Both the position numbers and the translations under genes were made by a program. A model generated the notes under the pieces. The model ran no database searches, had not been told where the DNA came from, and was given only the letters and a program-made list of their open reading frames with translations. This document shows positions 13,920 to 18,540 of a stretch of 64,000 nt of DNA, piece by piece. Source of the DNA: Promethearchaeia archaeon (GTDB taxonomy: Archaea > Asgardarchaeota > Lokiarchaeia > Sigyniarchaeales > SOKP01); contig JAHQWH010000015.1 in NCBI GenBank assembly GCA_029856105.1, forward strand, positions 32,001 to 96,000. The letters are read 5' to 3'. The stretch's first letter is position 1; every line of letters starts with the position of its first letter.

Positions 13920-14324
13920 ATGAAAGGGTTAAAGAAAAGGCGGGAGTTTAAAACTTCGCTTGAAGACTTGTTAAAAGATATTATGGATAATATTGAAGGT
14001 GTGAAAGCAGCGCAACTAACTGCAGATACTGGTCAACCACTCGCCTCTATACTACCAACAAGTGCAGATGACATGCGATTAGCAGCCATGACTGCGGCAC
14101 ATTGTTCATTGAGTGAACGTGCTATTGGAGAAATGGGTCTTGGCGAATTTGAACAATCGTACATAAAAGGAAGTAAGGGATACATATTGATTTTACATGC
14201 CGGGGAAGATAAAGTTTTAAGTGTATCTACTACAAAAGACGTTAAACTCGCGCCAATCCTATACAAGCATTACAAACAACTAGAAGATGGCGACGAAATA
14301 GTAAGTAGTACGCCCCCTGTTTAA
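13920..14324 (+). CDS. Roadblock/LC7 (MglB-like) domain protein
   Basis: GVKAAQL...G.PLAS.LP...RLAAMTAA..SLSERA..E.G.GEFEQ.YIKGSKGYILI. Confidence 0.9.
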   Translation: MKGLKKRREFKTSLEDLLKDIMDNIEGVKAAQLTADTGQPLASILPTSADDMRLAAMTAAHCSLSERAIGEMGLGEFEQSYIKGSKGYILILHAGEDKVLSVSTTKDVKLAPILYKHYKQLEDGDEIVSSTPPV

Positions 14325-14342: not shown

Positions 14343-15137
14343 TTAGGTCCTTAACCCTAATTCTTCTGGTGTTAAGTTATGAAATTTTTCATATCCAGGT
14401 AGAGTCATTCTTGTAAAAAATAGATATTTTAAATTATCCAAAAAATTATGCTTCTTTGGAAATTCGGAGTATCCCTCGTTAAATATTTGCTCCCGAAAAT
14501 TTTCTGTGAAGTGGCCTGTACTAAAAAATCTCCTTAAGAAAAGGAGTTTTCGAAAGATTCCTATTAATTTAGCACTGAATGGAGTTACTTGGCTTCTATG
14601 TTGAGACAATGCTTCAACGACGATTTGGATATCTTTCCATCTGCATTTTAATTTGAAATTGGGTTTGAAAGAGTAGTAATAAAAAACGCGTGTAGGTAAC
14701 TCGTTTTTGTTTAGTTTCTTAAGAGCAAAGAAAGGCAATCTACCAGCGTTTATGTGATCTGGATGATAATCAAGAGCATACCAAGGGTCTGGTGCAAATA
14801 AAATATCAGGTTTTTCAGTACGAATTATGTCAACAACTTTATTCAATGCCGATTTATTTATTGGAAGGTAACCATCGATATATCCTACTTTTAAAACTCG
14901 AACATGGTTTTTAGTGTATTTAGCGTACACATTATTTGCGTTTTCTAATTCTCTAGTTCGAATTCTTTTTAATCGAGCCCCCTTGAATTCTATGCGATGC
15001 GTTCCAAATTCACAATTAGTCATCAACACTTCTACAACTTCATTTCCTAACCTTAACGATTCTAGAAATGTAAACGGCACGCCAAATTCGATGTCGTCGA
15101 TATGTGGAGTAAAAAATAGAATTTTAAATCGCTTCAT
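14343..15137 (-). CDS. PIG-L/LmbE family deacetylase
   Basis: PHIDD, R..E, DG, YHPDH, HRSQ motifs. Confidence 0.85.
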   Translation of the reverse strand: MKRFKILFFTPHIDDIEFGVPFTFLESLRLGNEVVEVLMTNCEFGTHRIEFKGARLKRIRTRELENANNVYAKYTKNHVRVLKVGYIDGYLPINKSALNKVVDIIRTEKPDILFAPDPWYALDYHPDHINAGRLPFFALKKLNKNELPTRVFYYYSFKPNFKLKCRWKDIQIVVEALSQHRSQVTPFSAKLIGIFRKLLFLRRFFSTGHFTENFREQIFNEGYSEFPKKHNFLDNLKYLFFTRMTLPGYEKFHNLTPEELGLRT

Positions 15138-15161: not shown

Positions 15162-16604
15162 TTATAACTTTTTATCTTCGATATCGATACCTAGTTCTCT
15201 TAACCGTTCGCGTATTACATCGCTTAGGTCGTAGAGTTTTTTATCTCTTAACTTAGCGCGTATTTCGATTATTAAATTAACGAGACTTTTGATGAGTTTA
15301 TCTTTCTCATCCATGCTTTTAAACGAGAAAGGTGTCATTTTAGCGTTTAAAGATGGAAAAATTCCGAAAATCTTTTCATTAAATTCTATAAATTTGAAAA
15401 ATCGATCCTTAAATTCTTGGTTTATTTTCAAGCCATCTTGTAGTATAGCTTTGTTAATTTCTCTAAATAACGTCAATAACTCTGCCAAGGCTACAGGAGT
15501 GTCAAAATCGTCTTCCATAGCGTCAATAATTTTGTTTTCTGCATTTTCGATTTTTGCAATTAACTCGTTAAGTTGCTTTGATTTCGATTCAGCAAATTCA
15601 GCATCGTTCACTTTTTTAATCGTGTTTATTAATCGGTTATAAGTATTTTTAGCTTGCTCCATGCTTTCAATAGTATAATTATTTGAACTTCGATAATGAC
15701 TCGATATCAAATACCAACGAATAACCATTGGGTCATATTGCTTGGCAATATCTGCTACTGTGAAAATGTTTCCGAGACTTTTAGACATTTTTTCATCTTT
15801 TACATTAACATAACCGTTATGAAGGAAATAATTCGCAATTTTTTTACCAGTGTAAGACTCAGACTGCGCGATTTCGTTCCTGTGGTGTGGAAATTTCAAG
15901 TCTTGACCGCCCCCGTGTATGTCAATTGTTTCTCCTAAAAAGTTCAAGATCATAGCAGAACATTCAATGTGCCATCCAGGACGCCCCTCACCCCAGGGGC
16001 TTTCCCAAAAAGGCTCTCCTTCTTTCATCTTTTTCCACAACGCAAAATCTCGACTATCTAACTTATCTTCTCCAAATGCAGTATCTTGATCCACTACATA
16101 ATCTTCTTCTTCGCTTTCCTTTCCTTCATCTTTACTCTTTTGAAGAATAGAACTATATCCAGGAAACGATTTAACTGAGAAGTATACGGACCCATTTTTC
16201 TCGTAAGCGTGTCCCTTAGAAATTAATTCTTTAATAAAATTAATTATAAAATCTATTACTTCGGTTGCGCGTGGATTTCGCGTATCATGCTCGACATTGA
16301 GCATTTCCATGATTTCCTCATATTCAGCGATATAATGATCGCTTAAAGTCCTGAAATCGATGTTTCTCTCTTTAGAACTCTTAATTATTTTATCGTCAAT
16401 ATCAGTATAATTTTTTACTATATTAACTTTATAGCCCTTAAACTTTAAATACCTGTGAATTAAATCAAAAGCGACTGCGGACTTTGCGTGACCAAGGTGA
16501 GGCGAACCATATACTGTAACGCCACAAACATACATCTTGACTTTTCCGGGTTCGATTGGCTTAAATTCTTCCTTTTTAAACGTTAAGCTATTATAAACTT
16601 TCAT
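15162..16604 (-). CDS. cysS: Cysteine--tRNA ligase
   Basis: YVCGVTVY, HLGH, DFALWK, GRPGWHIEC, HGGGQDLKFPHH, KMSKS. Confidence 0.97.
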   Translation of the reverse strand: MKVYNSLTFKKEEFKPIEPGKVKMYVCGVTVYGSPHLGHAKSAVAFDLIHRYLKFKGYKVNIVKNYTDIDDKIIKSSKERNIDFRTLSDHYIAEYEEIMEMLNVEHDTRNPRATEVIDFIINFIKELISKGHAYEKNGSVYFSVKSFPGYSSILQKSKDEGKESEEEDYVVDQDTAFGEDKLDSRDFALWKKMKEGEPFWESPWGEGRPGWHIECSAMILNFLGETIDIHGGGQDLKFPHHRNEIAQSESYTGKKIANYFLHNGYVNVKDEKMSKSLGNIFTVADIAKQYDPMVIRWYLISSHYRSSNNYTIESMEQAKNTYNRLINTIKKVNDAEFAESKSKQLNELIAKIENAENKIIDAMEDDFDTPVALAELLTLFREINKAILQDGLKINQEFKDRFFKFIEFNEKIFGIFPSLNAKMTPFSFKSMDEKDKLIKSLVNLIIEIRAKLRDKKLYDLSDVIRERLRELGIDIEDKKL

Positions 16605-16657: not shown

Positions 16658-16766
16658 AGCCAGCGATGGGATTTGCACCCATGATGCTGAAAGCAACGGC
16701 TCTGCAGGCCGCCTCCTTACTACTCCCGCAACCAAGATAAATCTTGGTCATCTCGGATACGCTGGC
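16658..16766 (-). tRNA. tRNA-Cys(GCA) with 29-nt D-loop intron (16723-16751) and long variable arm
   Basis: Acceptor GCCAGCG/CGCTGGC plus U73; anticodon arm GCGGC-CTGCAGA-GCCGT; T arm ATGGG-TGCAAAT-CCCAT; CCA not encoded. Confidence 0.9.
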
Positions 16767-16932: not shown

Positions 16933-17460
16933 CTATTTAAAACATTTTCCACAACATTGACCATTTAAATTTGAATTTAAACTACAACTATCGAAATTAA
17001 AATCAAATGGCAAAACAAAATCATTCGTAACATCGGTTATTATGTCCACATAAACCGAAGAGACGTTAGAATTCTTTCTAAAGTGATTATTAACCATCTC
17101 ATCAATATTAGCTAGTTTAGTACCTATTACAAGAACACTGAGATTATAAGTGCCACTTAATCGAAATGCGTTTAGCATGTAAGGACAGTGTTTAACTAAT
17201 TCTATGGTTTTGTTTGGTTCTAAAGATTGAATTTCAACTCGTGCAAGGATTAAATCCATGGTTTTAACATTTATACCCGCTTGAAATTTTAAGACTCCCG
17301 CTTTTTCAAGCTTCCGAATCCTCATTCCGATCGTTGGTTGGCTCCGATCAACTCTTTTTGCGATTTCTGTATGAGTAAGCGTAGGCTCCTTTTGAATTAT
17401 TTCAATTATATTCTTATCAATCTCGTCTATTTTAAAGACTTGACTTTCCATTATCTCCAT
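16933..17460 (-). CDS. Lrp/AsnC family regulator with Cys-rich tail
   Basis: IDEIDKNII...EIAKRV.RSQPTI..RIRKLE..GV HTH, RAM domain, tail CCGKC. Confidence 0.88.
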   Translation of the reverse strand: MEIMESQVFKIDEIDKNIIEIIQKEPTLTHTEIAKRVDRSQPTIGMRIRKLEKAGVLKFQAGINVKTMDLILARVEIQSLEPNKTIELVKHCPYMLNAFRLSGTYNLSVLVIGTKLANIDEMVNNHFRKNSNVSSVYVDIITDVTNDFVLPFDFNFDSCSLNSNLNGQCCGKCFK

Positions 17461-17988: not shown

Positions 17989-18540
17989 ATGAATACAGCG
18001 ATGAGAGAAAACACAACAATTAACGCAAAAAAAGTATTAATCATGGGGTTAGATAATTCCGGTAAAACATCTATCGTATTATGTTTGAGGGGTGTGAAGA
18101 ATCTTTCGTCGTTTTCCTCGCTAAATCCTACGAGAGGGTTTAAGATCAATAAATTCCAAGCATTAGGCTCAGAATATAGCATCTGGGATTTCGGTGGGCA
18201 AGAACAATTTCGAGAGGGTTATTTAAACGACTTTCAAAACCACATAAAAAAAACTAATAAGTTCATTTATGTTTTGGACATCCAAGATCAGGAGCGGTTT
18301 AATAAATCGTTAGACTACTTAGATAAAATCGTTATCCTATTAAGGAAACATAAAGTAAATATTGATTTCTCTATATTTTTACATAAATACGATCCAGATT
18401 TGGAATTCACAAATAAAGAATTTATTGATAAACTGGTTTCTGATTTAATCAGAAATATAAAAGAATTAATTCCAAACGATTTTACGTATCAAATTTACAA
18501 AACATCGATTTATACTGTTTTTCAAAAATTTGGAATATAA
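17989..18540 (+). CDS. Small GTPase, Rag/Arf-related (start may be 18001)
   Basis: G1 GLDNSGKT, G2 PT, G3 WDFGGQ, G4 HKYD, G5 TSI. Confidence 0.92.
   Translation: MNTAMRENTTINAKKVLIMGLDNSGKTSIVLCLRGVKNLSSFSSLNPTRGFKINKFQALGSEYSIWDFGGQEQFREGYLNDFQNHIKKTNKFIYVLDIQDQERFNKSLDYLDKIVILLRKHKVNIDFSIFLHKYDPDLEFTNKEFIDKLVSDLIRNIKELIPNDFTYQIYKTSIYTVFQKFGI

Follow-up and report, generated by a model that had tools for sequence, protein, structure and literature searches.

Textbooks restrict long variable arms to the tRNAs for serine, leucine and selenocysteine and to bacterial tRNA-Tyr, and the variable arm is a main identity mark for SerRS. A tRNA gene that combines the cysteine anticodon GCA with just such an arm, and that lies next to the CysRS gene cysS, raises the question of which amino acid its product carries and of what the arm does there. 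The gene in question lies within the window, the whole stretch of 64,000 nucleotides analysed here, which comes from the metagenome-assembled genome of an uncultured Asgard archaeon of Loki type (Promethearchaeota).

An intron-bearing tRNA-Cys gene and its spliced product

The gene for a 109-nt pre-tRNA-Cys(GCA) occupies positions 16766..16658 on the minus strand and encodes no CCA; the sequence quoted for it in a previous sequence-only reading of this DNA is found exactly there. ARAGORN detected no tRNA in the whole window, nor did Rfam at its gathering threshold, the gene being invisible to both because of a 29-nt insertion in the D loop. Likewise, ARAGORN run on the unspliced gene with its intron option, which handles anticodon-loop introns only, found nothing, while Rfam in E-value mode returned for the unspliced gene only a mis-registered tRNA match (21.4 bits, with the wrong 5' strand), the false register again being due to the D-loop intron. 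When the 29 nt at 16751..16723 are deleted, an 80-nt body remains which is the same as the spliced body proposed previously, and ARAGORN then calls tRNA-Cys(gca). The score of the window gene with covariance model R1 is 91.7 bits.

In the spliced molecule the 5' strand of the acceptor stem (GCCAGCG, 16760..16766, this and all following elements of the tRNA being on the minus strand) pairs at seven out of seven positions with 16665..16659. The 3' strand (CGCUGGC) and the discriminator base together take up 16658..16665, so placed that U73, at 16658, follows a perfect 7-bp acceptor stem; U73 is invariant in all homologues. U8, A9 and the first-exon part of the D arm (UCCGAG) lie at 16752..16759, where UCCG doubles as the central 4-bp helix of the splicing motif. 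The intron itself (16723..16751) is followed in the second exon by the remainder of the D loop, the 3' strand of the D stem and G26 (UAGUAAGGAG, 16713..16722), which gives the spliced tRNA the D arm UCC-GAGUAGUAA-GGA. The anticodon arm (GCGGC-CUGCAGA-GCCGU, 16696..16712) presents GCA (16705..16703), followed by G37, in a loop of 7 nt on a 5-bp stem. Next come the variable region of 13 nt (UGCU-UUC-AGCA-UC, 16683..16695), whose stem-loop spans 16695..16685, and the T arm (AUGGG-UGCAAAU-CCCAU, 16666..16682). The MFE fold of L005, a natural 80-nt allele, is a five-armed cloverleaf with an acceptor stem of 7 bp, a D stem of 3 bp, an anticodon stem of 5 bp, a variable arm of 4 bp with a 3-nt loop, and a T stem of 5 bp. 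The GCA anticodon, U73 and the position of the variable stem (16685-16695) had all been given correctly in the sequence-only reading. The 3-bp D stem that it described is likewise present, whereas its view of this stem as a Leu/Ser-style mark of the long-arm form has to be abandoned: the 3-bp D arm is not a class II adaptation, because short-loop alleles share it.

The elbow of the tRNA is also altered. The D loop has AG in place of G18G19, with A18 at 16721 and G19 at 16720, and the T loop UGCAAAU has G55 (16676) in place of U55, which is kept by all other tRNAs detected in the window genome. Across Asgard families (L001-L120 and L189-L198) AG is found with UGC, and GG or CG with UUC, with a single ambiguous case (L115). 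The association of AG with UGC looks like covariation of the 18:55 tertiary contact.

The limits of the intron were located by an exhaustive scan for a 4-bp helix with two 3-nt bulges and a cut behind the second nucleotide of each, the definition being that of PMC4090602. Exactly one solution exists in the window gene, with the helix U10CCG13/CGGG, the bulges AG|A and AG|U and an inner helix of 9 bp. The junction that it specifies is also the junction of natural intron-less alleles: in two sister genomes (L005 and L006) the gene lacks the intron and is letter-for-letter identical to the spliced window product, and further intron-less genes are present in sister genomes (L008, L009 and L012-L020). 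Without any editing, intron-less genes are called tRNA-Cys by ARAGORN and tRNA by Rfam (54.7 bits). At the level of sequence the splice junction is confirmed by the natural intron-less alleles together with the unique BHB solution, and excision of the 29-nt intron is predicted to restore a functional tRNA. The genome contains two ORFs of the EndA family (PF01974), of 200 and 202 aa.

Introns with non-canonical BHB motifs were reportedly described in archaeal tRNA genes by Marck and Grosjean in 2003. The strict BHB search gave no fit for five other loci (L003, L004, L010, L011 and L027), each of which has a mismatch in the central or the inner helix; their introns are relaxed motifs. In relatives the intron has another sequence, is absent, or has moved, to 10/11 in L007 and elsewhere to the anticodon loop or the T loop. 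Across genomes, the orthologous tRNA-Cys gene carries introns at no fewer than six positions, sometimes two together, and in sister genomes it has none. The sites include 10/11 (L007), U33/G34 (L065-L067), the T loop (L081, L082, L099, L100 and L102) and the border between variable region and T stem (L069-L075). These positions illustrate rapid intron turnover, and such variability agrees with the report that Asgard tRNA genes are heavily loaded with labile introns, many of which are missed by standard tools (bioRxiv 10.64898/2026.10.13.758758).

The extra arm and its distribution among relatives

Of the 13 nt in the variable region, 11 form a hairpin in the MFE fold. In structure the tRNA therefore belongs with class II, which is recognised by a variable region of more than 10 nt forming a stem-loop, and not with class I, where a variable loop of 4-5 nt is expected; in isotype it does not, the GCA anticodon and U73 setting it apart from the Ser, Leu, Sec and bacterial Tyr tRNAs that make up class II.

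A covariance model built from intron-less genes was used to search 151 genomes of the order, and some 100 loci were fetched and read. The four pairs of the arm stem are standard pairs in 100% of cells (24 distinct 3' halves, from two families of the order). Two of the four change on both sides (CG<->UA and UA<->CG) and the other two change to wobble only. None of 500 shuffles matched either the observed pairing or the observed covariation, and when the partners were slid out of register the pairing dropped to 38-71%. The arm ends in a loop of 3 or 4 nt, which in many cases is a tetraloop of GNRA type (GCAA or GAAA): variants with a 3-nt loop are UGCU-UUC-AGCA and UGCU-UUU-AGCG; those with an AUUA loop are UGCU-AUUA-AGCA and UGCC-AUUA-GGCA; those with a GNRA-type loop are UGC-GCAA-GCA, UGC-GAAA-GCA, UGCC-GAAA-GGUA and UGUC-GCAA-GACA; and a further variant is UGUC-AUCC-GACA. 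The arm is present in intron-less genes too, and its sequence is kept like that of an exon, in contrast to the gene's true introns, which are free to differ in both sequence and position. From these comparisons the extra arm is judged to be real and, where present, under selection for pairing. The strictness with which pairing is conserved argues that the arm is not purely neutral, and some function may exist. The principal claim of the sequence-only reading, that a genuine tRNA-Cys(GCA) bears a long, base-paired and lineage-restricted variable arm, is upheld by compensatory changes in two families.

As to the source of the arm, derivation from the organism's own tRNA-Ser or tRNA-Leu arms was considered and rejected, as the sequences are not convincingly related in the window genome. 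The tRNA-Leu arms of some relatives (UGCUUAGUGCAUC) match the tRNA-Cys arm at 10 of 13 positions.

The gene was found in 35 of the 60 relatives searched, and more than 40 genomes in all have conserved it, with changes that are compensatory. In the window's own family, four genera have variable regions of 12-14 nt, namely g1 (20 genomes), g18 (at least 15), g22 (3) and g23 (1), and in a second family, f4, so do all four genomes; the proposal of a lineage-specific class II tRNA-Cys is thus sustained by the presence of the arm in two families of the order. In other species of the same genera the variable loop is an ordinary one of 5 nt (UAUUC or UUAUC), the gene being otherwise near-identical. 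Short loops only are found in family f2, three closed genomes included, and in family f3, as well as in all ten tRNA-Cys genes read from seven other Asgard families. On a tree of CysRS from 56 loci, which as a gene tree is a proxy only for the species tree, the state of the arm changes at least four times, and three of these changes are forced by well-supported branches. Sisters of opposite state may be only about 0.09 substitutions per site apart (L074, short, and L066, long; L085 and L080). The arm has apparently been gained, lost or exchanged several times, identical arms across genera leaving allele exchange as an alternative to repeated loss. Cysteine identity does not appear to require it, near relatives with nearly the same CysRS using a 5-nt loop.

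Charging, synthetase partners and rival readings

Whether this is the cell's only tRNA-Cys was a check that the sequence-only reading had called for. No second tRNA-Cys was found in the 3.66-Mb assembly by two structure-based scans together with BLAST searches using seven divergent tRNA-Cys variants. The gene is the sole GCA locus in three independent scans of an assembly that is 92% complete, where a tRNA-Cys on the missing DNA or one hidden by several introns would escape detection. The assembly contains one CysRS, with its DALR anticodon-binding domain, and a normal SerRS. SepRS and SepCysS are absent from it, their only matches falling far under the curated cut-offs (71 versus 381 bits and 25 versus 365 bits), and a SepRS/SepCysS route was rejected on these scores. 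The only cysteines in CysRS, C27 and C215, are invariant and zinc-binding, and both are encoded by TGT. U73 and GCA are major CysRS determinants (PMC9976931), and the window gene probably encodes the organism's working, and apparently only, cysteine tRNA, which would be charged accordingly.

The tRNA complement of the window genome (G000, 3.66 Mb) comprises 23 tRNAs by ARAGORN and 29 by Rfam. Among the ARAGORN calls, Phe(aaa) with an intron of 1171 nt, Pyl(cta), and a Ser(CGA) called as Leu(caa) are suspect and look like intron-caused artefacts or mis-assignments; the set as a whole is badly under-annotated by standard tools. At C71:6359-6430 and C163:24160-24231 there are two identical 73-nt tRNA-like pieces whose 5' part and anticodon arm (loop CUGCGAA) are normal, but whose 3' end breaks off past the T loop into AT-rich sequence. 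They may reflect a split tRNA half, duplication at an integration site or redundancy in the assembly.

Production of the tRNA is proposed to involve, first, transcription of the gene together with, or just ahead of, cysS, and then cleavage of the 29-nt D-loop intron by the archaeal splicing endonuclease at the BHB, where the D-stem strand U10-G13 would pair with the 3' end of the intron. The exons would be ligated and CCA added, and the single canonical CysRS would charge the 80-nt body with cysteine by way of U73 and GCA, the 13-nt variable region staying in the mature tRNA as a short hairpin of 3-4 bp. Class I synthetases bind tRNA with the variable region facing solvent, and tolerance of the arm by CysRS is most likely explained by an approach from the side away from that region. 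Because relatives gain and lose the hairpin freely, it most likely represents an addition that an otherwise ordinary cysteine tRNA tolerates, and the genetic code is most likely unchanged. It is unlikely that the arm is instead a recognition handle, and not a passenger, giving the sole tRNA-Cys a second partner. Candidates for that partner would be SerRS or LeuRS, with regulated ambiguity of the cysteine codons, or else a factor for modification or quality control, particular to the lineage, that makes up for the altered A18/G55 elbow. If the handle were real, Loki-type archaea would stand midway through a transition of tRNA identity from class I to class II.

A dual identity, in which the arm makes tRNA-Cys a substrate of SerRS (or LeuRS) as well as of CysRS and so leads to ambiguous decoding of UGY or to a Ser-tRNA-Cys intermediate, is very unlikely, even though several features lend it some colour. 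The variable arm is the chief basis of serine identity (PMC9976931), and the tRNA-Cys arm (13 nt, 4 bp) is only slightly shorter than those of the organism's own tRNA-Ser (15 nt, with 4 bp and a GUAA or GAAA tetraloop) and tRNA-Leu (14 nt), so that cross-recognition would not be sterically barred. The pair G30-C40, a secondary determinant for archaeal SerRS (PMC9976931), is present in the window tRNA-Cys. Bacterial allo-tRNAs with U73 are proposed serine acceptors (PMC5389517), and tRNA-Ser with U73 or A73 exists in some other Asgard families. Against this, the strongest determinant for archaeal SerRS is G73 (PMC9976931), which in the window genome is found in all three tRNA-Ser detected, while all tRNA-Leu have A73 and tRNA-Cys has U73. 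Of the combination that would mark a SerRS substrate, G73 with a long variable arm, the tRNA-Cys thus has the arm and not the base. The discriminator, U73 as against the G73 of the serine tRNAs, is the expected barrier to serylation, which U73 would disfavour. Further, neither SepRS, SepCysS nor any other conversion route was found in the genome, essential conserved cysteine residues are encoded by UGU, and turnover of the arm among near relatives would be hard to tolerate if it changed the meaning of the cysteine codons.

In other Asgard families, class II tRNAs whose anticodons are those of serine (GGA, UGA, CGA and GCU) carry U73 in f10 (L180-L188) and A73 in f28 and f25 (L179, L183 and L184). 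The acceptor stems of those in f10 (GCCAGGA) resemble that of tRNA-Cys. This pattern of bases suggests that Asgard SerRS enzymes differ in their use of the discriminator.

Equally doubtful is the idea that the arm is an identity or efficiency element that has co-evolved with the neighbouring CysRS. What recommends it, besides the selection for pairing, is the position of the gene. The only cysS of the assembly (15162..16604, minus strand) starts 53 nt downstream of the tRNA on the same strand, so that the tRNA does lie directly upstream of it, as the sequence-only reading had said. It encodes a CysRS of 480 aa with catalytic and DALR_2 anticodon-binding domains, 96% identical to the CysRS of Loki_b31. 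Yet the gap between the two genes is about 40-55 nt in most of family f1 in both arm states, and the genes adjoin in f2 and f3 too, in varying orientation, the same synteny thus accompanying short-loop tRNA-Cys in three families. Conversely, for most of the long-arm genes in g18 the 1.5-2.5 kb retrieved to either side contain no cysS. The adjacency must be older than the arm, because it occurs throughout the order with short-loop genes too, and it appears to be independent of the arm. The synthetases tell against co-evolution as well: no column or indel in CysRS tracks the state of the arm, the best columns (19 of the 23 rows with a long arm, none of the 16 with a short loop) mark the g1 clade only, no column changes consistently in five contrasted pairs, and sister CysRS carry opposite arm states (L074/L066 and L085/L080). 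With an adjacency that predates the arm, at least four flips of state and no CysRS residue that follows them, the co-adaptation with the adjacent CysRS proposed previously does not hold.

The tRNA gene and cysS form part of a conserved block comprising an Lrp/AsnC-type regulator (16933-17460, minus strand), tRNA-Cys, cysS and a PIG-L family deacetylase (14343-15137, minus strand). The regulator adjoins the tRNA in 53 loci, and the deacetylase adjoins cysS in 10 loci; PIG-L enzymes act beside CysRS paralogues in bacterial low-molecular-weight thiol synthesis. The flanks of the locus (13920-14324 and 17989-18540) encode a Roadblock/LC7 protein and a Gtr1/RagA/Arf-like small GTPase, typical Asgard 'eukaryotic signature' genes that fit the taxonomic placement.

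Removal of the arm after transcription, as a second and very short intron or by other processing, would leave a mature class I tRNA. Introns abound in this lineage and interrupt its tRNAs at many positions, the border between variable region and T stem among them (L069-L075), and standard tools overlook many Asgard tRNA introns (bioRxiv 10.64898/2026.10.13.758758). Nevertheless, this is a highly improbable account of the arm: the 8-9 extra nt are too few for a 4-bp helix between two 3-nt bulges, a loop of 3-4 nt that is often of GNRA type provides no conserved bulge, the only BHB-like register would take out C48, and the arm is exon-like in its conservation where true introns are free to vary. 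With no BHB register that fits and with a loop of varying length, a second intron was rejected. Finally, that the gene is a decaying or unexpressed copy, with a functional tRNA-Cys elsewhere, is scarcely credible: the low Rfam score of the unspliced gene, the unusual G55/A18 elbow and the incompleteness of the assembly (92%) could be cited for it, but all stems pair perfectly, the gene is kept with compensatory changes in upwards of 40 genomes, three independent scans gave no other GCA tRNA, and the A18/G55 elbow is common to the tRNA-Cys of many Asgard families.

Significance and comparison with known systems

The locus is an example from nature of a class II arm on a class I tRNA, here the primary and sole tRNA-Cys of many Promethearchaeota (Loki) genomes; sister species whose CysRS is nearly the same do without the arm. 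Such sisters amount to a natural paired experiment on how freely a class I tRNA can acquire a class II arm, and on how SerRS, LeuRS and CysRS discriminate between tRNAs once arm length no longer separates them. There is also a consequence for annotation, in that ARAGORN and Rfam overlook the gene on account of its D-loop intron and the genome would seem to have no tRNA-Cys.

The intron has close counterparts. It shares with the non-canonical BHB introns of archaea (PMC4090602) the 4-bp helix and two 3-nt bulges, and differs from them in nothing unusual, its outer helix being weak or absent (HBh'-like). In its D-loop site, and in being overlooked by standard tRNA finders, it resembles the introns of the Asgard census (bioRxiv 10.64898/2026.10.13.758758).

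For an archaeal tRNA-Cys with a long arm, no published description was found in full-text literature of incomplete coverage. Bacterial allo-tRNAs, like the noncanonical V-arm-containing tRNAs known from eukaryotes (Hamashima, Tomita and Kanai 2016, cited in PMC5389517), combine a long variable arm with an anticodon of a class I family. These have Ser or Leu identity elements and are extra, mistranslating or recoding species, whereas the window tRNA has the full cysteine identity set and would be the main decoder.

The selC* tRNA-Cys of bacteria (Mukai et al. 2017, PMC5389517; reviewed in PMC7609411) is a cysteine tRNA with a long variable arm, U73 and often GCA, sometimes encoded near cysS (PMC5389517). 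Its body is nonetheless like that of tRNA-Sec: the acceptor/T geometry is 8/4, A51a is bulged and the anticodon stems are longer. Moreover, selC* tRNAs serve as minor, additional isoacceptors, associated with selB* and with a second synthetase, CysRS*, which has no anticodon-binding domain (PMC5389517). The window tRNA by contrast has 7/5 geometry and is the only tRNA-Cys, served by a single normal CysRS with a DALR domain. A selC*-type system was rejected on that geometry, on the one tRNA-Cys locus and on the single CysRS with DALR_2.

With the class II tRNAs (Ser, Leu, Sec and bacterial Tyr) the window tRNA has in common a paired arm between the anticodon and T arms and a D stem of 3 bp; it departs from them in an anticodon and a discriminator that are those of cysteine, and in an arm that is dispensable within its lineage. 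To the canonical class I tRNA-Cys(GCA) of archaea it corresponds in GCA, G37, U73, G15...C48, the 7-bp acceptor stem and the 5-bp T stem, in being the sole isoacceptor, in adjoining the sole CysRS gene and in having short-loop alleles in sister species. It differs in its 13-nt variable region with a 4-bp hairpin in place of a 4-5 nt loop, in its A18/G55 elbow in place of G18/U55, and in the BHB intron of its D loop. The canonical archaeal tRNA-Cys is its closest known relative.
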